This document shows, one piece after another, positions 10,775-44,447 of a stretch of 64,000 nucleotides of DNA. Positions within the stretch are counted from its first letter, which is position 1, and each line of letters starts with the position of its first letter. The notes under the pieces were generated by a model. That model made no database searches. It was not told the DNA's origin and saw nothing but the letters and a program-made list of their open reading frames with translations. The position numbers and the translations under genes are program-made. This stretch comes from an uncultured bacterium (GTDB taxonomy: Bacteria; Babelota; Babeliae; Babelales; Vermiphilaceae). The stretch lies in contig OY969561.1 of NCBI GenBank assembly GCA_963701085.1, positions 704,001-768,000 of the forward strand. The letters are read 5' to 3'.

Positions 10775-11740
10775 ATGAATACATCTTCTGAATTTTTACA
10801 TTATGGCGCCATAGCAACTTCAATAGCTCTCAGTTCAATCTCTGTGGGTCTTGGTGAAGGGCTTATCAGTTGGAGTGCTCTCAATGCTATAGATAGACAA
10901 CCTGCAGCTCAAGATGCTGTTATGCGTGTAGCAATCATTGGCATGACTTTGGTAGAAACCGTTGCGATACTAGGACTCCTTGTTTCCATTCTCTTATTAA
11001 TTTACACAAGCACCGCTGCACCTAATATCTTTGCTCATTACAGTGAAATAGGTATCATCGCGGCAATAGGAATAACAGGACTGGCAATTGGATTTGCTTC
11101 CGCACTCCCTGCACAAGCCGCGTGCCATGCTGTTGCACGACAGCCATTTTTTGCTCACCGCATTTCTGGATTCATGCTCATGACACAAGTTGTTATACAA
11201 ACTCCCATGATTTCAGCTTTTCTTGTTTCACTATTTATTCAAGGACAATCAAGCATGACAGAAACGCTCACTGATAGCCTACGTCTTATTGCAAGTGGAT
11301 TGTGTGTTGGTATTGGCAGCATTGGACCTGCAATTGGCTTAAGTACCTTTGGAAAAGCTGCAGTTACCAGTCTTGGTAAGAATACCAAAGCATATGACAA
11401 ATTACTTTCATTTACGTTTATCAGCGAAGCACTCATAGAAACACCCGTTCTCTTTTGTTTATTAATCGCCATCACACTCCTTTTTGTTGTACCTCATAAC
11501 ACAGCAGAAAACAGTATTGATGGTATTATCTATTTATCCGCTGCATTATGCACGGGGCTTGGAACACTGGGAACCGGTATCAGCTCAGGAATAACATCAG
11601 CAGCCGCTTGCACGCAAATTGGCAATAATCCTGACTCATATAATCTCCTTTCCCGCACGAGTATACTTGCACAAAGCTTGATTGAAACCATTGTTCTGTA
11701 CACCGTCATATTATCATTACTCATGATTTTATTCAGATAA
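10775..11740 (+). CDS. atpE: ATP synthase subunit c with four fused c hairpins
   Basis: Four repeats of about 80 aa: loops RQP/RQP/KNT/NNP and ion-site motifs VET/IQT/IET/IET. Confidence 0.88.
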   Translation: MNTSSEFLHYGAIATSIALSSISVGLGEGLISWSALNAIDRQPAAQDAVMRVAIIGMTLVETVAILGLLVSILLLIYTSTAAPNIFAHYSEIGIIAAIGITGLAIGFASALPAQAACHAVARQPFFAHRISGFMLMTQVVIQTPMISAFLVSLFIQGQSSMTETLTDSLRLIASGLCVGIGSIGPAIGLSTFGKAAVTSLGKNTKAYDKLLSFTFISEALIETPVLFCLLIAITLLFVVPHNTAENSIDGIIYLSAALCTGLGTLGTGISSGITSAAACTQIGNNPDSYNLLSRTSILAQSLIETIVLYTVILSLLMILFR

Positions 11741-11772: not shown

Positions 11773-12405
11773 ATGAAAAAACACATTATCTCAGCAATTG
11801 TCACCATATCACTCACTAATCTTACTACCCATACTATGGACCAAGCATTAGTCTGCAGTGATAGATTTGACAAATTACCCAAGCATGAACTAAATATAAT
11901 TGCATCATTCACCAAAAGACCCGGCAAAGATACATTGCGATGCGTTAATAAAACACTTAATGCAAAAATAATTTCACAAGACGATCTATATGCACGCTAT
12001 GAGAATGCAAAGCTCCACAAAGATCCACGTACAATACAAGCATTATTGGAATATAATACATTTGTCATCCCTAACATGCATCATGTGGACATAGAGGCAT
12101 TCTTGCGCTACAACATATACAAAATACCTAACCTACACTCTGAACTGATTAATGCTATTAAAGACAACAATATCCCATTGGCAATATACTGCTTAAACAG
12201 ACTTCCTAGATTTATGGGGCATTTTCAACACAATTGCATCAATATTGCTACCAGTAACGGTAATATTGATATGGTAAAAATATTATTACCACGCCGTGAT
12301 GATAAGATGCAAAATACTTTAAAGCAAAATCATCATGTTGCAAATGTCGCAGCAAAAAACAAGCGCCCTCTAGACATCGTTAGAGTTTTTGAAGAGATTA
12401 TTTAA
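11773..12405 (+). CDS. Exported F-box-like/ankyrin protein
   Basis: Signal peptide; FDKLPKHELNIIASF...LRCVNK; INIATSNGNIDMVKILL ankyrin repeat. Confidence 0.6.
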   Translation: MKKHIISAIVTISLTNLTTHTMDQALVCSDRFDKLPKHELNIIASFTKRPGKDTLRCVNKTLNAKIISQDDLYARYENAKLHKDPRTIQALLEYNTFVIPNMHHVDIEAFLRYNIYKIPNLHSELINAIKDNNIPLAIYCLNRLPRFMGHFQHNCINIATSNGNIDMVKILLPRRDDKMQNTLKQNHHVANVAAKNKRPLDIVRVFEEII

Positions 12406-12455: not shown

Positions 12456-14117
12456 ATGCACTTCAAAACCATTTTATTTCCATTCATTTTCTTGGCAACA
12501 TGCATTCCCCACACATCTTTTGCTATGCATGGTAAAAAACAAATAGCAGAACAAAAAAAACGCATGCAACAGAACTTACAAAAAAAAAGAACTCAAAATG
12601 AATGCAATACAAAGCTACTAAAATTATGCGATATAGATACAACAAACAAAGATCTATCCTTCATACTCAAACTACATGATACTGCAAAAAATCTTCTTGA
12701 TAATGGTGCCGATATAGAAGCACAAACAGTAAATAAATGCACTTCACTATATCTTGCTTGTTCAAACAAAAACTTTCCAATGGTAAAACTACTCATTGCT
12801 TATGGCGCCAATGTAAATACTCAAACTGAAAATGGTTATACTTCCTTGGCAGTTACTGCACAAAAGGGATTTTTTGATATAGTAAACATACTGACCATGG
12901 CACAAGCAAGCCCCAACATTCAAAATTTTAAAGACGGACAAGTACCTTTACATAATGCTTGTAGTGCCGGAGATTTTAATATTGCAAAAAATTTACTTGA
13001 ACATAACGCAAACCCAAATATACAAACATTATACGGAGAAACAGCTCTTCTTTTTGCCGCAAGTCCACAACATCTTGATATAGTAAAGTTGTTATTTCAA
13101 TATCGCGCAAATCCAAATATTCAAAATAGTGAGGGATTAAGCCCTCTCTATCTTGCTTGCCAACACAATAATGTAGAAATGGCAAAAATAATACTTACTA
13201 ATAATGCAAACCCTGATGTACAAAAATCAAACGGTGCAACATCACTTCGTGTTGCTGTAGAAAACAAGTTTATTGATATAATACATCTGTTATTTACATT
13301 CCATGCAAATCCAAATATTCAAGATAATAATGGAGTAAGCCCATTGCACTTTGCTTGCGGCAAAGGCTACTTAGAAATAGTAGAAATATTGCTTAACAAT
13401 AAAGCAAAGATAAATACTGAGACCAAAAAAGGTAAATGGACTCCATTACACGCCGCTTTTTTCTATGATCATTTTTTTATTGTAGCACTATTACTCAAAC
13501 ATAATGTCAATGTTAATGCTCAAAATATTGATGGCATAACACCTTTACATCTAGCTTATTACAAAAAGAATCGAGTTATGATATACCTTCTTTTGCTGTA
13601 TGGTGCCAAAGATATTTCTCGTCAACAAGCTCAAAAAGAAAAACAGCAATTTTTTGAAGATGTAAATCAAAAAGCACCTCAAGTAATACTTCCAAAAGAA
13701 AAACCTGTAGTACCTCATCAACCGGCAACAAAAAAAGATAGCGCTATAAAAGATCAATCACCCCAGAAAAACTCTCCTTCAACCAAAGCTTTAAAAAACA
13801 AGCCAAATCCTACAAAAAACACGGTTACAATACATACTCCACAAAAAAATGAATATCTCATTTTACAAGATAAGAAGTTTAAGTGGGGCAGATTTTTAAG
13901 TACAACACAGCAAAATGCAATAAAAGACCACGCAAAAGAACTCAAATATTGGCCTGAGGTAACTGATCTTGATATTAAGCCTCTCCAAGGAGTCGAAAAA
14001 GGAACATATCGTCTGCGTGTTGGTTCATGCCGCATTAAATTTTTTATTGATGAAAAAAGTCGTCAAATTTTCATCCAAAAAATTGGCCTGCGCAAAAATA
14101 TATACCGAAACAAATAA
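12456..14117 (+). CDS. Exported ankyrin-repeat protein with a C-terminal RelE/ParE-superfamily domain
   Basis: Signal peptide; about 9 ankyrin repeats; low-complexity linker; DIKPLQG..YRLRVGSCRI.F.I....I.I..IGLRKNIY. Confidence 0.85.
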   Translation: MHFKTILFPFIFLATCIPHTSFAMHGKKQIAEQKKRMQQNLQKKRTQNECNTKLLKLCDIDTTNKDLSFILKLHDTAKNLLDNGADIEAQTVNKCTSLYLACSNKNFPMVKLLIAYGANVNTQTENGYTSLAVTAQKGFFDIVNILTMAQASPNIQNFKDGQVPLHNACSAGDFNIAKNLLEHNANPNIQTLYGETALLFAASPQHLDIVKLLFQYRANPNIQNSEGLSPLYLACQHNNVEMAKIILTNNANPDVQKSNGATSLRVAVENKFIDIIHLLFTFHANPNIQDNNGVSPLHFACGKGYLEIVEILLNNKAKINTETKKGKWTPLHAAFFYDHFFIVALLLKHNVNVNAQNIDGITPLHLAYYKKNRVMIYLLLLYGAKDISRQQAQKEKQQFFEDVNQKAPQVILPKEKPVVPHQPATKKDSAIKDQSPQKNSPSTKALKNKPNPTKNTVTIHTPQKNEYLILQDKKFKWGRFLSTTQQNAIKDHAKELKYWPEVTDLDIKPLQGVEKGTYRLRVGSCRIKFFIDEKSRQIFIQKIGLRKNIYRNK

Positions 14118-14239: not shown

Positions 14240-15148
14240 ATGCATAAACATCTTCTTGCTGCCATTGGCAACACTCCCTTAGTACGCGTACCATTCACTA
14301 CACCTGCAACATTATACGCAAAACTTGAATATCTCAACCCCGGTGGCAGCATAAAAGATCGATCAGCCTTATTCATGGTTGAACAAGCTGAAAAAACAGG
14401 CCTACTCAAACCTGGTGGAACAATCATTGAACCATCATCAGGCAACCAAGGTATTGCTCTTGCCATGATTGGCGCTGCAAAAGGATATAAAGTTATCATC
14501 ACCACTAATGCAAAATTCAGCCAAGAAAAAATAGCAACTATCCGTGCATATGGCGCAGAAATTGTCATGTGCCCTGCAACAGAATTTATTGAAGATCCCA
14601 ACAGTTATCATTCAACTGCATGCAGATTACAACAAGAAACGCCCAATTCATTTATGCCAAATCAATACTTTAATCCCATGAATGCGCAAGCACACTACAC
14701 ACTCACGGGGCCAGAAATTTGGCAGCAGACTAATGGCACCATTACTCACTTTTTTGCTGCAGCAGGTACGGGTGGAACCACCTATGGAACAGGAAAATAT
14801 CTCAAAGAACAAAACCCCAACATCAAGCTCATTGCTATTGATTCCATTAATTCATTCTACTCAACAAAAGGCCATCCTAAGCCATATAAACTTGAAGGTG
14901 TCGGCATTGATTTTGAACCTACCGCCGTTGATTACAATATAATGGATGAGGTTCTCCCGGTAGCTGATGAAGATGCTTTTGCAATGCTCAAAAATTTAGC
15001 ACGCAATTATGGATTTTTAGTAGGATTAAGCAGTGGTGCTGTTGCATGGGGAGTGCATCATTATTTACCACAATTAAAAAAAGATGATGTTGTGGTAATG
15101 CTTTTTGGTGATTCGGGGCGAGCATATTTAACAAAAAATGTATATTAA
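14240..15148 (+). CDS. cysK: PLP-dependent cysteine synthase / cystathionine beta-synthase family protein
   Basis: IGNTPLV, KLEYLNPGGSIKDR, SSGN, GTGGT and G.SSG motifs. Confidence 0.85.
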   Translation: MHKHLLAAIGNTPLVRVPFTTPATLYAKLEYLNPGGSIKDRSALFMVEQAEKTGLLKPGGTIIEPSSGNQGIALAMIGAAKGYKVIITTNAKFSQEKIATIRAYGAEIVMCPATEFIEDPNSYHSTACRLQQETPNSFMPNQYFNPMNAQAHYTLTGPEIWQQTNGTITHFFAAAGTGGTTYGTGKYLKEQNPNIKLIAIDSINSFYSTKGHPKPYKLEGVGIDFEPTAVDYNIMDEVLPVADEDAFAMLKNLARNYGFLVGLSSGAVAWGVHHYLPQLKKDDVVVMLFGDSGRAYLTKNVY

Positions 15149-33864: not shown

Positions 33865-34344
33865 ATGCTTTACTTCAATGACACAAAATATAACCTTTTT
33901 TTTGCCTTACTCATAACAGTACTACTGTTGATAGACGTGGGGCAGTTTTTTTTAATTGGAACAACAGTCATTCCACTTCTTTTGTGCATTTATTGCGCAT
34001 TACTCTGCTGCGCTCTGCGATACAAAACTCTTTCATTAATCGCATTATTGCAATGCCTTGAATCTTTTTGTTTTTATAATTTTTTCTCACTTGCCTTCAT
34101 ATACCTCATTCCAATAACAGCACTCGCTCTTTTTTTCAAAAAATATTTATATCCCTCACGTACCCACAGCATTGCTCTTGCACTAACGGGCATCCTTATC
34201 CAAATTTATGCGGTTGAAGGCCCTTTTTTGCATATCTGGCCAACAAATTACTATACAATTATGAGAATTAGTGGTACACTACTTATAACAATATGTTTCT
34301 CTTTGACAATAAATATTTGGGGTATGCAAGACAATCGCGCGTAA
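33865..34344 (+). CDS. Multi-pass membrane protein (size and hydrophobicity reminiscent of MreD; unconfirmed)
   Basis: 159-aa hydrophobic ORF whose last codons overlap the rnpB 5' end. Confidence 0.6.
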   Translation: MLYFNDTKYNLFFALLITVLLLIDVGQFFLIGTTVIPLLLCIYCALLCCALRYKTLSLIALLQCLESFCFYNFFSLAFIYLIPITALALFFKKYLYPSRTHSIALALTGILIQIYAVEGPFLHIWPTNYYTIMRISGTLLITICFSLTINIWGMQDNRA

Positions 34345-34750
34345 ATCTTAGATTTACGGGAGGAAAGTCCGGACTTCCAATGAACATGGTACCTACGGAG
34401 AGAATGGCCTCATAACCATTTTGCAACGTAGGAGAGCGTAAGCTCATGGAAAGTGCCACAGAAAATAACCGCTACCGTCTTAAGAATAACTTCTTAAAAC
34501 GGGTACCTAATTGTAACGCTAGTGAAAATTGGGTTTTAAGTAAGGGTGAAAACGTGCGGTAAGAGCGCACGGTTATGCATAGCAATATGTATAAAGGGCA
34601 AACCCTACCAGAAGCAAGACAAAAAAGCGTGTGTCGCGGTCGTTCATTCCGTATTAACACGCGGGTACGTCGCATAGATAAATGGTTGTCAGCCTGACAA
34701 ATGCTGCACTGCATAATCAGGCCACAAAATCCGGCTTACTGCAAACCCCA
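34319..34750 (+). ncRNA. rnpB: RNase P RNA (type A-derived)
   Basis: GAGGAAAGTCCGG, AGTGCCACAGAAA, GGTGAAA..GGTAAGAG, GGCAAACCC, AGCAAG, TAGATAAATG and ACAAAATCCGGCTTA; P1 is GGGGTATGCA/TGCAAACCCC. Confidence 0.97.
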
Positions 34751-34829
34751 AAAGTGCCAATCTCATACACCCTGCTCCGCTACTGCTGCACAGGGTGGTT
34801 TAAGGCAAAAAAAAACAAGAGTTTCACCC

Positions 34830-39954: not shown

Positions 39955-40968
39955 ATGAAGTTATCACAAAAAAGTAACCCTGCTGCAACAAGACACGCTT
40001 TAATCGCACTATTACTCGCTGCGATCACTTTTAACGCCTATGGCATGAAAAGATCTATAGAATCACCGCAAACAGAAAACCAACCAATAATAGGACGTGC
40101 CCAATTACCCAGCGGGGAATGGGTAGATATTGTTGGCCTAATACTCAATCAGAATGCGCCAATGAAACTATTATTAACAAACTTTAAATTCAATGAATTA
40201 TTCCCAGAATTGCGAAAACATATCATTTTTTTCCTCAGCTCATATACAAATGCTAAATCACTCAAAAAAGCTGCATTTACCATTAACTCTCTTGCTCAAG
40301 TGGATAAAGAAATAAATCAACTCATTAATGATCCCCATTTTTGCCTAAAAAATATAAAATATCTTGCGCAAAAATTCAAACAATCTGATGAAAAAGTAGC
40401 CAAGATTTTACAAACTAAAGCAGCCAAAGAACGTTCTGCTTTGCAAAATAAACTTTACTATCTAATGTTAAAAGTTGAACAGCAGTCACAGGAATTAATA
40501 GATACACTTAATCTCTTATGTGAACAAGGCATCGATTTGAATTATATCTACAATATACCTGATGACATATGGACCACAGAGGACATCCCCTGCCCAGGAA
40601 TGACAGCTCTAATGACTGCGGTAGAAAATAATAACCTTACTCACCTCAAGGCACTTCTTGCAAAAGGTGCCAATATCAATGGAACTAATCAGTGTGGAAG
40701 AACTGCATTAATGATTGCTGCGCGGATGAATGATCACAAAGATGCTGTTCAACTTCTTATCAACGACCCCAAAATCAATATCAATCAGCAAGAATTAGCG
40801 TATGGCGACACAGCTCTCTATTTTGCATGCACAAACAATAATATAGACATTGTAGAAATTCTTCTTAACGCCGGTGCTGATCCAGAATTTTACGATATAT
40901 CAGCTGTTGAAGAAAAAGTTGAGAACTTACTTCGAGATGCGATAGATAAAAAACATGGGTATAAATAA
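39955..40968 (+). CDS. Exported F-box-like/ankyrin protein (array gene 1)
   Basis: Signal ..AYG-M; FNELFPELRKHII..L..INSLAQV; ankyrin repeats. Confidence 0.85.
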   Translation: MKLSQKSNPAATRHALIALLLAAITFNAYGMKRSIESPQTENQPIIGRAQLPSGEWVDIVGLILNQNAPMKLLLTNFKFNELFPELRKHIIFFLSSYTNAKSLKKAAFTINSLAQVDKEINQLINDPHFCLKNIKYLAQKFKQSDEKVAKILQTKAAKERSALQNKLYYLMLKVEQQSQELIDTLNLLCEQGIDLNYIYNIPDDIWTTEDIPCPGMTALMTAVENNNLTHLKALLAKGANINGTNQCGRTALMIAARMNDHKDAVQLLINDPKININQQELAYGDTALYFACTNNNIDIVEILLNAGADPEFYDISAVEEKVENLLRDAIDKKHGYK

Positions 40969-40980
40969 AGGATCACAATC

Positions 40981-42132
40981 ATGACTAAAAAAATAAATAA
41001 TTCATTCATCGCCTTCCTGCTACTTGCTGCAACGTTTAACCTTCATAAAACACATGCCATGGAGCAGTCAATATCAGAAGAATCAACACAAAATGAGATA
41101 AATGATGCTTTCATAAAAGCCGCACAAAACAATGACTGTTCTACCATCAAAAAACTTCTCAGCTATGGGGCAGATATCAATACAACTAATTCAGAGGGAG
41201 TGACAGCATTAATGCTTGCTATCGGAAATAGATACACTGATGCAATCCAATGCCTTCTTAGCAACCCTGATATTGCCATAAACCAACAAGATAACACGGG
41301 AATGACTGCTCTCATGCTAGCAGCAGTAATAAATAATTGCCGTATCATCCGCATACTTCTCGCTCATGGAGCCGATATCAATAAAGCTAATTTCAAGGGA
41401 CAAACGGCATTAATACTCGCTGTCCTTCGTGGAAACACAAATGCGGTCAAACGTCTTCTGAGTAACCCTAATCTTGCCATAGACCAACAAGACAATAAAG
41501 GATATACAGCTCTCATGGTGTCACTTATCTTTTTTTCAAGAACTAAAAATAAATTAACTATAAGAAGACTTCTTAATGCTGGCGCAGATCCTGAAATTGC
41601 TGCACCTGAAATTGACAACAATGCTGCTCTCACACCACTAGAAGTAGCAGAAGGCACTGGTGATCAAGAAGTTATTGATCTTATTCAAAATGCGATAAAT
41701 GACAAACAAAATACTGCCCTTATAGAAGCAGCAAAAAACAACGACTGCCCTACCATCCAAAAATGTCTCAATAATGGAGCAAATATCAATATAGCCACTT
41801 CCAATGGATTCACGGCATTAATGATAGCTATCGACAGGGAACACACGGATGCAGTCCAATGCCTTGTGGGCAATCCTAATATTGCGATAGACCAACGAAA
41901 CAATGAAGAAGATAATGATACCGCTCTCATGCTAGCACTTTTGGGAAAAAACAAATTAATTATAAAACTACTTCTTGATGCTGGCGCAGATCCTGAGCTG
42001 GCTGATAGTAAACGCCGCACACCATTAAAAGTAGCTCAACAAATTGGTGATGCAGAAATTCTATCCTTAATAAACAAAGCAATACTAAAAAAACATGGTG
42101 TAGTGAACATTGTTACTAAGACACAAAAATAG
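40981..42132 (+). CDS. Exported ankyrin-repeat protein (array gene 2)
   Basis: Signal ..THA-ME; multiple G.TALM repeats. Confidence 0.9.
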   Translation: MTKKINNSFIAFLLLAATFNLHKTHAMEQSISEESTQNEINDAFIKAAQNNDCSTIKKLLSYGADINTTNSEGVTALMLAIGNRYTDAIQCLLSNPDIAINQQDNTGMTALMLAAVINNCRIIRILLAHGADINKANFKGQTALILAVLRGNTNAVKRLLSNPNLAIDQQDNKGYTALMVSLIFFSRTKNKLTIRRLLNAGADPEIAAPEIDNNAALTPLEVAEGTGDQEVIDLIQNAINDKQNTALIEAAKNNDCPTIQKCLNNGANINIATSNGFTALMIAIDREHTDAVQCLVGNPNIAIDQRNNEEDNDTALMLALLGKNKLIIKLLLDAGADPELADSKRRTPLKVAQQIGDAEILSLINKAILKKHGVVNIVTKTQK

Positions 42133-42153
42133 GTTTATCAAAATGGAGCTCTT

Positions 42154-43272
42154 ATGAAGATAATCAAAAAAACAGGTTCATTCATCGCTCTGCTGATGCT
42201 TGCTTCAACATTTAATAACTATAGCATGGAGCCGCAACAACAACCAGAATGGGCTACTGTTGTTGGCGATATCATTCTTGGCACTGCAAGTTTGACAATA
42301 CTATCGCAACCAAATGAACCCTTTGAATTCACTGCTCTACCACCGGAAATGCAAGATAAAATTATTCAGTTACTCAGCTTAAACACAACTGCCGAATCAC
42401 TTAAAGAGGCTGCAAAAACTATTAATTCTCTTGCTCAAGTGAATCATGAATTAAATCAACAGATAAACGATCCTAAATTTTGCCTCAGCATCATCAAACA
42501 TCTTGCACAAAAATTCAACTGCTCTGATCAGGAAGCAGCTAAGACATTACAGACACACGAGGCAAAACGGCGTCTTGTGTTGCAAAATCAACTCTATGTA
42601 CATTGCAGTACTCCATTCGGTATAACCGATCCCCTAAAAAATATCCCATCCCTTGATTCTTTATTAGAACAAGGCGTCGATTTAAATTTTACCTATGACA
42701 CGTTAACACCTAAACTTTTTTTTACTCCACTGATGCTTACAATCGCCAGCAGTAACCTAATGATTGGAGATCTTTGTTCAATTGGAAGAAATATCATCAA
42801 CTTAAATCAAAGAAATACTCTCAATGGTGATACAGCCCTTATACAAAGCGTTAAAAAAAGATCGCGTTTTAGTGTCCAGTGCCTTCTTGAAGAAGGTGCT
42901 GATCCTGAACTTGCCAATTTTGCTGGGCAAACACCACTAGAATTAGCCGCACAACGATATCACCTGACGCAGCACAGAAGCTATCAAAAAATTTTTAATC
43001 TTATTCAAAGGGCGATAGATATTTATTTTATTCAAAATGCGATAGATAACAAACATGTTAACCAAAGAAATAACAAAGGGCAAACTGCTTTATCATTAGC
43101 CGCAGCAATACCATCATCTCGCTTGGTAAAAACCATTCTTGATGCCGGTGCCGATCCCGAACTTGCTGATGATGAAGGCCTCACCCCACTTGCTGCTGCC
43201 CAACAAACTGACAACCAAGCAATTATTGATCTTATTCAAGATGCGATAGATAGAAAACATGGCTATAAATAA
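42154..43272 (+). CDS. Exported F-box-like/ankyrin protein (array gene 3)
   Basis: Signal ..NYS-ME; FTALPPEMQDKIIQLL; ankyrin repeats. Confidence 0.85.
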   Translation: MKIIKKTGSFIALLMLASTFNNYSMEPQQQPEWATVVGDIILGTASLTILSQPNEPFEFTALPPEMQDKIIQLLSLNTTAESLKEAAKTINSLAQVNHELNQQINDPKFCLSIIKHLAQKFNCSDQEAAKTLQTHEAKRRLVLQNQLYVHCSTPFGITDPLKNIPSLDSLLEQGVDLNFTYDTLTPKLFFTPLMLTIASSNLMIGDLCSIGRNIINLNQRNTLNGDTALIQSVKKRSRFSVQCLLEEGADPELANFAGQTPLELAAQRYHLTQHRSYQKIFNLIQRAIDIYFIQNAIDNKHVNQRNNKGQTALSLAAAIPSSRLVKTILDAGADPELADDEGLTPLAAAQQTDNQAIIDLIQDAIDRKHGYK

Positions 43273-43303
43273 CCCTACTACGCCAAGGCTACGAAGGGCG
43301 TAA
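43273..43303. repeat. Short REP-like element
   Basis: CCCTACTACGCCAAGGCTACGAAGGG, related to the reverse complement of 25515-25536. Confidence 0.5.
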
Positions 43304-43319
43304 ACGAAGGACCACGATC

Positions 43320-44447
43320 ATGACTAAAAAAATTAATTCACTCATCGCTCTACTGCTACTTGCTACGACGTTTAATAGCTACAGCATGGAGCCGCAGCGA
43401 CCACCGCAATGGACAGTCTTGACGTTAGTGATTGGAGATATCATTCTTGGCAAAAGACCACCAGAAATAGGGAAATTGCGGGAGTACGTTGTTTCGTTAC
43501 CTGCCATACCAGAATATATGCAAAAGTTAATCATTCAATTAATAACTTTATACGTCGATGCTCAATCACTTAAAGGAGCAACAGGAGCCATTAATTCTCT
43601 TGCTCAGGTAGATGATCAATTCAATCGATTAATTAATATCCCTGACTTTTGTTTATACCTTATCAAGCATCTTGCAAAAAAATTCAACCGCTCTGATCAG
43701 GAAGCAGCTGAAGCATTACAGACACACGAAGCAAAACGGCGTCTTGATTTGCAAAATCAACTCTATACATTGTGTGAAAATCCTCATAACTCCATATCTC
43801 TTGAAGATTTATATCATGCAGATTTGACATTCACCTATACCTCGTGGCCTCAAACATTATTAATGCAAGCAATCACCTTCGGCAGTATGGCGATAATACG
43901 CCAGCTTCTTAATGCCGGCGCTGATCCAGAAATCGCTAATAATGATGGGCTGACGCCATTACAAGCCGCTCAACAAACTGGTAACCAAGAAATTATTGAT
44001 CTTATTCAAAATGCGATAAATAAAAAACAAAATACTGCCCTTATAAAGGCAGCACAAAAGAACAACTGCCTTATGATCAAAGAACTTCTCTCTAATGGAG
44101 CAAACATCAATACAACTGATTCCGATGGAAACACAGCATTACTATGGGCTGTCGATCAAGAACATATAGATGCAGTCCAATGCCTTGTGGGCAATCCTAA
44201 TATTGCGATAGACCAACACAACAATGAAGAAGATACCGCTCTTATGCTAGCACTTGTTAAAAAAAACAAATTAATTATACAACTACTTCTTGATGCCGGC
44301 GCAGATCCTGAGCTGGGTGATAGTAGACGTCACACACCGTTAAAAATAGCTCAAAAAACTGAGGATGCAGAAATTATATCCTTAATAAGTAAAGCAATAC
44401 TAAAAAAGCATGGTGTAGTGAATATTTTTGCTAAAACACAAAAGTAG
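43320..44447 (+). CDS. Exported F-box-like/ankyrin protein (array gene 4, chimeric)
   Basis: N-terminal half resembles gene 3; C-terminal half resembles gene 2. Confidence 0.85.
   Translation: MTKKINSLIALLLLATTFNSYSMEPQRPPQWTVLTLVIGDIILGKRPPEIGKLREYVVSLPAIPEYMQKLIIQLITLYVDAQSLKGATGAINSLAQVDDQFNRLINIPDFCLYLIKHLAKKFNRSDQEAAEALQTHEAKRRLDLQNQLYTLCENPHNSISLEDLYHADLTFTYTSWPQTLLMQAITFGSMAIIRQLLNAGADPEIANNDGLTPLQAAQQTGNQEIIDLIQNAINKKQNTALIKAAQKNNCLMIKELLSNGANINTTDSDGNTALLWAVDQEHIDAVQCLVGNPNIAIDQHNNEEDTALMLALVKKNKLIIQLLLDAGADPELGDSRRHTPLKIAQKTEDAEIISLISKAILKKHGVVNIFAKTQK

Follow-up and report, generated by a model that had tools for sequence, protein, structure and literature searches.

A RelE-type toxin domain at the end of a leader-bearing ankyrin-repeat protein from an uncultured Dependentiae bacterium

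What does a domain of the kind known from toxin–antitoxin (TA) systems do at the end of an ankyrin-repeat protein that begins with a putative export leader and has no antitoxin gene beside it? The question is raised by a gene in a stretch of 64,000 nucleotides (called the window below; contig OY969561.1 of assembly GCA_963701085.1, positions 704,001 to 768,000 of the forward strand), which belongs to an uncultured member of the Dependentiae. Bacteria of this phylum are widespread, mostly uncultured protist parasites, ankyrin proteins make up about a tenth of their genomes, and to our knowledge none of these proteins has been assigned an activity. Here we show that the C-terminal domain of the protein is a relative of the mRNA-cleaving toxin RelE and that its fusion to ankyrin repeats is conserved, and we weigh whether the protein could be an exported effector against host translation.

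The C-terminal domain and its relation to RelE

Using the 105 C-terminal residues as query, we obtained a match to PHROG 1213 (‘RelE-like toxin’) with E=1e-10, covering profile positions 18–88 of 88. A single-sequence search of the PDB with the domain gave weak matches, the best being Rv2866/RelE2 with E=0.23. With a fused-only profile (alignment A2), compiled from nine fused domains, namely that of the window and those of eight loci of related genomes, the archaeal RelE PHS013 (1wmi_A) was found at E=2.5e-7 across the whole chain, further matches were Rv2866, M. jannaschii RelE3 and M. tuberculosis RelE1, and all 11 best PDB matches were RelE or YoeB toxins. A 63-row profile that includes stand-alone relatives reached 7.3e-18 for 1wmi and 8e-8 for E. 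coli RelE. When aligned by hhalign to E. coli RelE, the sequence of which was taken from the annotated K-12 record, the 63-row profile gave a probability of 97% (E=8.5e-11) and the shallow 9-row profile one of only 22%. At the level of sequence the domain is homologous to RelE well beyond chance, and in a protein-language-model atlas it neighbours clusters named RelE. No match to the C-terminal domain came from PADLOC or NCBIfam, whose matches to the full-length protein concern the ankyrin part only and lie far below the cut-offs.

The models point the same way. In them the C-terminal ~90 amino acids (aa) form a strand, a helix and a four-stranded sheet with a predicted local distance difference test score (pLDDT) of 93–96, and the AlphaFold2 (AF2) model of the isolated domain has a pLDDT of 83.9. 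The best Foldseek matches were M. tuberculosis RelE2 (3g5o_B), T. thermophilus RelE (2khe), P. horikoshii RelE (1wmi) and M. jannaschii RelE (3bpq), all with a probability of 1.00 and a template modelling score, TM(target), of 0.74–0.82, followed by the YoeB, YafQ and HigB mRNases. The nine top chains are RelE toxin entries or H. pylori HP0892, and the gyrase poison ParE is absent from the top 19. As modelled, the domain has a RelE-type fold.

The catalytic residues could be located as well. The hhalign alignment pairs R519, R526 and R546 with the E. coli RelE residues listed in Table 1. As the aligned block stops at residue 83, the equivalence of Y550 with E. coli Y87 was inferred from other alignments: in 1wmi, 3g5o and 2khe (archaeal, mycobacterial and Thermus RelE) it is the C-terminal Tyr that aligns with Y550, and the HMMER alignment to 1wmi_A pairs both R546 and Y550 with their RelE counterparts. 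R61, R81 and Y87 are described as critical for cleavage by E. coli RelE (Neubauer 2009, PMC2807027), and ParE gyrase poisons as being without such catalytic residues (Gerdes 2025, PMC11980606). Since the Arg/Arg/Tyr set is kept here and absent from ParE, the domain is of the RelE (mRNase) kind. A ParE identity was ruled out, the nearest sequences and structures all being those of RelE, YoeB, YafQ and HigB mRNases.

Upstream of this domain Pfam found ankyrin families only (Ank_2, E=1.2e-79; Ank, E=1.9e-58 in 8 stretches). The full-length AF2 model (mean pLDDT 88.5, with a 47-row alignment as input) contains nine helix-pair ankyrin repeats at residues 97–381 plus caps, with a pLDDT of ~98, and before them a single long helix at residues 26–58 with a pLDDT of ~95 or more. 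The surrounding segment, residues 24–58, is Lys/Gln-rich and holds 8 K per 35 residues. Residues 404–462 contain 11 K, 10 P and 6 T among 59, and as the pLDDT falls below 50 at residues 420–462 this linker is likely to be flexible. By hydropathy and the –3/–1 rule the leader ends in S-F-A at –3 to –1, directly followed by Met24. An earlier note, made from the sequence alone, had claimed exactly these parts, a signal peptide followed by Met, a basic stretch, about nine ankyrin repeats, a K/P/T-rich linker and RelE-type motifs in the last ~90 aa, and had left the fold of the C-terminus to be checked. Every part was recovered, all motifs are present where the note had placed them, and the fold check ended at RelE toxins with equivalents of the catalytic residues retained. 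The note had the domain start at 13850 (about residue 466), and the first strand of the domain in the model starts at residue 468.

Table 1. Parts of the ankyrin-RelE protein and its neighbouring genes, in positions of the window.
Feature	Positions	Strand	Basis and remarks
Open reading frame (ORF), 553 aa	12456..14117	+	uninterrupted; stop codon 14115-14117
Putative Sec-type leader, residues 1-23	12456..12524	+	sequence and hydropathy; n-region K4, 13-residue hydrophobic core, c-region S-F-A
Met24 and basic/Gln-rich helix, residues 24-58	12525..12629	+	composition, AF2 model
Ankyrin-repeat solenoid, residues 67-403 (N-cap, nine repeats, C-cap helix)	12654..13664	+	Pfam, AF2
Disordered K/P/T-rich linker, residues 404-462	13665..13841	+	composition, pLDDT
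RelE-fold domain, residues 463-553	13842..14114	+	PHROG, profile, AF2, Foldseek, hhalign
YRLRVGSCR motif with R519, R521, R526	14010..14033	+	hhalign; R526 = E. coli RelE R61, R519 = K54
R546 and Y550	14091..14105	+	R546 = E. coli RelE R81 and archaeal RelE R85; Y550 = C-terminal Tyr, by inference E. coli Y87
Upstream neighbour, 210 aa, leader (...LTNLTTHT|MDQ) then Met, weak ankyrin signal; not an antitoxin	11773..12405	+	sequence, Pfam
Downstream neighbour, pyridoxal phosphate-dependent enzyme, cysteine-synthase-like (cysK-like); syntenic anchor	14240..15148	+	Pfam PALP, E=6.9e-73

Conservation and origin of the fusion

To follow the family we use G-labels for genomes (G000 holds the window; G002, G003 and so on are others) and L-numbers for extracted loci. 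An exhaustive HMMER search with the domain against 1.84 billion cluster representatives matched 112 proteins at E<=1e-3 and 36 at E<=1e-10. They comprise 47 long relatives of ~200–820 aa (among them P0002, retrieved first in another search), in which the domain sits at the extreme C-terminus, and about 65 short ones of ~85–90 aa that resemble stand-alone toxins. P0029 (1845 aa, seven short repeated matches) was excluded from the counts of the family as a repeat-driven match. Two other searches were negative: when proteins of 57–184 aa were searched by word index, the 105-aa domain gave no match, which reflects its sensitivity limit as HMMER later gave ~60 short relatives, and in a locus search with the domain in genome contigs none of 146 pattern matches was confirmed.

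Pfam detected ankyrin repeats in 44 of the 47 long relatives. Identity to the window protein drops to ~25–30% overall among these 47, and R521, R526, F529 and Y550 are invariant in all of them, with R519, G523 and R546 conserved in at least 90%. The family is diverse, falling into ~45 clusters at 50% identity. One 73%-identical ortholog is named ‘ankyrin repeat protein/mRNA-degrading endonuclease RelE’ in one public source; the name covers both halves, so automatic annotation detects both. We reconstructed a maximum-likelihood tree from 110 domain sequences and 96 columns, omitting P0040, P0050, P0001 (identical to the window) and proteins below 75 aa. In this tree 44 of the 45 ankyrin-RelE rows form one clade with a Shimodaira–Hasegawa-like approximate likelihood ratio test (SH-aLRT) support of 99, three short, gene-fragment-like rows lie inside it, and most deeper forks are unresolved. 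Within this clade the fusion is, as judged from the tree, conserved and of single origin.

Long open frames of 435–841 aa with a strong terminal match were present in G000, G002 (two copies), G003, G005, G006, G007 and G009. Of the 11 genomes in the genus, 7 thereby carry the fusion, as does one genome of another genus in the family, G033. The G033 copy (L005, G033:C2, 12-530 and 475-1779) consists of two overlapping frames, the first with the leader and the first repeats and the second with the remainder, owing to a frameshift or an assembly indel. A sequencing or assembly artefact as the source of the fusion, which the earlier note had named as a possible refutation, proposing a search for the architecture in relatives as a check, is ruled out by its conservation across relatives and genomes. 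Three DNA sequencing runs yielded short low-depth contigs that are identical to parts of the gene, none of them spanning it, and are uninformative on the junction or on expression.

Among the 261 genomes of a phylum-wide scan 80 had a match at E<=1e-5, and a second set of fusions was found as weaker matches within other long frames. Sel1/tetratricopeptide repeat (TPR) proteins of 526–797 aa carry a PF05016 domain near the C-terminus, followed by a short acidic/coiled tail (L048, L049 and L051 in G081, G025 and G075). A tandem array of seven leader-bearing genes with frames of 634–1266 aa, each with an internal RelE/ParE-like match, is located at G137:C7:308000-332000 (L046-L047), and the single member of this array that was run through Pfam reads ankyrin, RelE/ParE-like domain, TPR. 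The four extracted fusions of the second set all start with a leader and form a clade of their own (SH-aLRT 98) away from the ankyrin-RelE clade. Their separate position indicates that a RelE-type domain was joined to a leader and eukaryote-style repeats at least twice in the phylum.

Leader, gene neighbourhood and host-dependent gene content

At the hydropathy threshold used, a leader-like N-terminus is present in 30 of the 47 family rows, and the 17 others include several that are fragmentary or begin at the second Met as called. In the ortholog at L003 and in six other loci the frame upstream of the called start stays open and hydrophobic. Inspected by eye, Shine–Dalgarno (SD)-like purine runs lie 6–12 nucleotides 5' of Met1 in five of eight loci and before the second Met in none of the eight. 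The open hydrophobic frames, the leaders in the family and the SD-like motifs together favour a start at Met1 rather than at Met24. A lipoprotein reading of the leader was ruled out, as Cys16 follows L-A-T, so that position –1 is not A, G or S, and relatives do not conserve this Cys.

Directly behind the leader a Met is found in 28 of the 30 leader-bearing relatives. This junction, a small residue, Met and then Glu, Asp, Asn or Gln at residues 13–40, occurs genome-wide in G000, in 95 of 343 leader-bearing ORFs; among ORFs without a leader it is present in 47 of 525, and among interior windows in 29 of 907. Its Met peaks at positions 20–25 and is followed by Glu in 63 of the 95 cases. Signal peptidase may favour such a site, or the junction may be a sorting motif or mark a dual start. 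In this genome the post-leader Met is often taken as the start by gene callers.

Regarding the export machinery, the genome encodes signal peptidase I and two secretin genes, in agreement with PMC4776705, according to which every TM6 genome has two copies of gspD. The published accounts of Dependentiae genomes give type II secretion as the sole secretion system (PMC4378268, PMC4776705, PMC6561590). Most of their ankyrin proteins are reported to carry signal peptides: Babela has them on 79 of 126 (PMC4378268) and Chromulinavorax on 78% (PMC6561590). The ankyrin proteins of the phylum are thought to be exported via Sec and the type II secretion system (T2SS; PMC4378268, PMC6561590).

No conserved small ORF that could encode an antitoxin or immunity protein flanks the gene in nine loci (the window and eight related ones). 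The earlier note had seen no adjacent antitoxin in the window, which holds, its neighbours being a leader-bearing protein with a weak ankyrin signal and a cysK-like enzyme, and extends to the eight related loci. The adjacent, co-transcribed antitoxin gene by which a type II TA system is recognised was thus not found. The cysK-like gene is also a neighbour of the fusion in L003, L004 and L015. In G000, G003 and G005 the fusion lies between an ATP synthase c-subunit gene and the cysK-like gene, and in G002 a small additional ORF stands between the fusion and the cysK downstream of it. A 90-aa ORF downstream of the fusion in G002 (L003 1890-2159) has a leader, ...LINLTTHA|MEH, that resembles that of the 210-aa protein upstream of the fusion in the window, and the look-alike leaders may reflect a local rearrangement of a small leader-bearing gene. 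The c subunit itself (10775-11740, +) is unusual with 321 aa and three ATP-synt_C stretches, a fused multi-hairpin form compared with the usual ~80 aa, and a 319-aa ortholog occupies the same place in G003 (L015 932-1888).

The sole canonical relBE-type pair of the genome is located ~360 kb away (G000:C1:1079818-1080350; L002 1154-1686). Its RelB-like antitoxin of 82 aa (PF18506, 28.4 bits against a cut-off of 27) overlaps by ATGA with a toxin of 94 aa (PF05016, 39 bits), which shares 41% identity with the fused domain along 57 residues. A near-identical copy of this toxin is present in G007 (L016). With one query, the RelB-like antitoxin was not found in any of the five other carriers G003, G005, G006, G009 and G033, which are 91–98% complete (best E=0.23; other antitoxin families were not searched). 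Protection in trans by the RelB of the genome is therefore unlikely to be a general solution.

Two TLC ATP/ADP translocase genes and 73 Ank_2 matches in the genome, a single contig of 1,198,634 bp, agree with the obligate intracellular life of the organism, a Dependentiae (Babeliales) bacterium. Repeat proteins are common around the gene: four consecutive ankyrin-repeat genes (337–383 aa) lie at 39955-44447 (+) of the window, two adjacent WD40 beta-propeller proteins of 580 and 557 aa, an eukaryote-like repeat class, are encoded at 1784-5256 (+), TPR and further ankyrin genes occur within the window, and a larger ankyrin island is found at G000:C1:513600-520700. The only Rfam match in the window is a bacterial class A RNase P RNA (34319-34753, +; 211.9 bits).

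A candidate effector, its rivals and its known relatives

We propose that the protein is a RelE mRNase effector, exported by Sec and T2SS and targeted by its ankyrin repeats, that acts against host translation. We consider the case for this reading evenly poised. A former bacterial “addiction” toxin would then probably have been turned into a weapon against host protein synthesis. Translation would begin at Met1, the 23-residue leader would direct the protein to Sec, signal peptidase I would cut after S-F-A to leave Met24 as the new N-terminus, and the type II secretins would release the mature protein from the bacterium into the protist host. There the nine-repeat solenoid may bind a host protein and set location or specificity, and the RelE domain, on a flexible tether of ~60 residues, would enter the ribosomal A site and cleave the mRNA codon by means of R526, R546 and Y550, so that host translation is shut down or reshaped. 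An antitoxin would be unneeded as the protein leaves its producer during or soon after synthesis, and in the unfolded or tethered state it may be inefficient on the ribosomes of its producer. That eukaryotic ribosomes also support cleavage by E. coli RelE is stated in PMC2807027 and PMC11980606, both citing Andreev 2008, which makes a cross-kingdom chemistry plausible. The earlier note had arrived at an exported effector too, and the fold, the catalytic residues, the conserved fusion, the leader character and the missing adjacent antitoxin speak for it; its novelty is smaller than the title of that note implied, as Tox-RelE domains were catalogued already in 2012 (PMC3482391). The suggestion that the ankyrin repeats might inhibit the toxin was addressed by a complex prediction of the ankyrin region (residues 24–420) with the RelE domain, which scored 0.00 and is uninformative on auto-inhibition.

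Several observations weigh against an exported RelE effector. The domain stays below the curated Pfam cut-off (PF15781, ParE-like toxin, 15 bits against 28 needed), a PF05016 search of the own genome did not list the window protein, and just 11 of the 47 long relatives match PF05016 at E<=1e-3. The equivalent of RelE helix 1 is modelled as coil with a family-specific K-W-P motif, giving a surface unlike that of canonical RelE. The signal peptide was called by hydropathy and the –3/–1 rule only, 9 of the 47 rows are leaderless as called, several of which may be truncated calls, and public gene calls begin at Met24 for the window protein (P0001, 530 aa) and two close relatives, omitting the leader. 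The near-universal post-leader Met could also be an internal start, from which a cytoplasmic isoform would be made. An ankyrin body of ~45 kDa on a tether might hinder entry into the A site unless the linker is long enough or cut, and if the bacterium is vacuolar a T2SS substrate would still need a way to reach host ribosomes.

In one alternative the RelE-fold domain is exported but does not cleave A-site mRNA on the cytosolic ribosomes of the host. It may act on other RNA (free mRNA, tRNA or rRNA) or on mitochondrial ribosomes, or be a non-catalytic ribosome- or RNA-binding module brought by the ankyrin repeats to a host complex. The diverged helix-1 region with its K-W-P motif would fit such a change, the superfamily is described as plastic, including gyrase poisons, ribosome-independent RNases and multidomain forms (PMC11980606), and a cultured Dependentiae is reported to reorganise host mitochondria around itself (PMC6561590). 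However, Arg/Arg/Tyr are invariant or nearly so despite the low overall identity, which argues for a kept chemistry, and the nearest structures are all ribosome-dependent mRNases. We regard this alternative as unlikely, yet as the most serious of the competitors.

Harder to sustain is the idea that the protein, or an isoform started at Met24, stays in the bacterium as a single-chain TA-like or defence module with the ankyrin part as an intramolecular inhibitor or sensor in place of the antitoxin. The public start calls and the Met behind the leader in nearly all relatives would agree with it, single-gene fusions of toxin and antitoxin are described in the superfamily (PMC11980606), and ankyrin proteins can, according to reference 30 in PMC6561590, be self-protection or immunity proteins. 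Against this, leader character is conserved in the family and in the DNA of the ortholog, SD-like motifs, as judged by eye, precede Met1 in five of eight loci and Met24 in none, the leader-Met junction is a genome-wide and not a family-specific feature, and leader-bearing ankyrin arrays are the hallmark exported class of the phylum. It appears improbable to us.

Least of all do we expect an interbacterial, polymorphic-toxin-like weapon (Tox-RelE) against competitors in the same host or environment: Sec-exported multidomain toxins with a C-terminal RelE domain are known, PMC3482391 names ankyrin among the repeat types found in Sec/T2SS polymorphic toxins and the family is highly diversified, but the nine loci hold neither an adjacent immunity gene nor a cassette array, Pfam found no RHS, HINT, pre-toxin or type V, VI or VII (T5/T6/T7) trafficking domains, no delivery route into another bacterium is apparent, and the gene is inherited vertically at a fixed chromosomal position within an obligate intracellular gene set.

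Returning to the host-directed effector, we compared it with known systems. With the RelE toxins of relBE pairs (E. coli RelE; archaeal RelE PHS013, 1wmi; M. tuberculosis RelE2/Rv2866, 3g5o) it shares fold, sequence homology and the catalytic Arg, Arg and C-terminal Tyr, and a stand-alone pair of the same superfamily is present in this very genome. In contrast to these, the domain here ends a 553-aa ankyrin protein with a predicted export leader, has neither an adjacent antitoxin nor an autoregulated operon, is remodelled in the helix-1 region, and its proposed target would be the ribosomes of another organism. Tox-RelE, as presented by Zhang, Aravind et al. (2012, PMC3482391), likewise combines a C-terminal RelE nuclease domain with a Sec/T2SS-type leader and upstream repeats, and is described there with RHS repeats, HINT peptidases and adjacent Imm54 immunity genes and with a presumed interbacterial action. 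The window protein has the C-terminal toxin domain and the N-terminal trafficking signal (leader by heuristic) of a polymorphic toxin, whereas RHS or filamentous repeats, a pre-toxin or HINT domain and a downstream immunity gene or spare cassettes were not found, cysK-like or unrelated genes lying there. Its scaffold is ankyrin, and its producer is an obligate intracellular parasite of eukaryotes.

Other comparisons concern the use of such domains against a host. The VapC of Rickettsia is described as a TA-type toxin acting on host molecules (PMC12321070); it differs from the window protein in having another fold, keeping its antitoxin and lacking an ankyrin fusion and a Sec leader. Endosymbiont proteins of ankyrin repeats and a latrotoxin C-terminal domain (CTD) also fuse the scaffold to a payload (PMC3482391). 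Gerdes (2025, PMC11980606) describes multidomain RelE/ParE proteins with a BECR-fold toxin domain within a larger chain; that survey covers TA fusions, transmembrane variants and defence operons and sets antitoxin-less multidomain proteins aside, and the terms ‘ankyrin’ and ‘signal peptide’ occur 0 times each in its main text, while its supplementary tables might list such proteins. ‘RelE’ is not mentioned in the Dependentiae genome papers PMC4378268, PMC4776705 and PMC6561590, and the TA systems reported for Babela are HicAB and MNT-HEPN only (PMC4378268).

Effector biology offers two further parallels. The FIC-derived Bep effectors of Bartonella turn the concept of a TA-type toxin against a eukaryotic host with a different toxin fold and with neither an ankyrin fusion nor a Sec leader, and AnkX and LegAS4 of Legionella join an ankyrin scaffold to a payload domain in an intracellular bacterium and are exported by Dot/Icm. 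The window protein resembles such ankyrin effectors in carrying ankyrin repeats in a bacterium with a host-dependent gene set, and differs from them in its RelE payload and in its predicted export by Sec/T2SS rather than Dot/Icm. The NCBIfam ankyrin-effector models match the full-length protein via its repeats only, far below their cut-offs. No description of an ankyrin-RelE family was found in the literature, searched mainly at the level of titles and abstracts. What is new is thus the combination: both the toxin domain and the export logic are known, the scaffold and the biological setting are new, and immunity is absent.

More tentatively, and with somewhat less confidence than in the host-directed reading of the single protein, the RelE mRNases of Dependentiae might be seen as a family of antitoxin-free Sec/T2SS effectors on eukaryote-type scaffolds, ankyrin in one clade and Sel1/TPR or ankyrin and TPR in a second, independent one, docked on the translation machinery of the host or its mitochondria, which they would shut down. 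The post-leader Met would then be a signal for maturation or sorting that is specific to the lineage, or a second start for a cytoplasmic isoform. This bears on the long-standing question of the fate of TA toxins freed from their antitoxins: over tens of millions of residue changes a RelE seems to have persisted here with no antitoxin, a retention that only makes sense if it acts outside its producer. If the antitoxin-free effector reading is true, this would be the first demonstrated natural case of a RelE with cross-kingdom action, and if active on 80S ribosomes the ankyrin-RelE pair could be a natural tool for targeted translation shut-off. For the phylum, the family would provide a concrete and testable effector mechanism, in which the well-understood and readily assayed chemistry of A-site mRNA cleavage is placed on an ankyrin scaffold.

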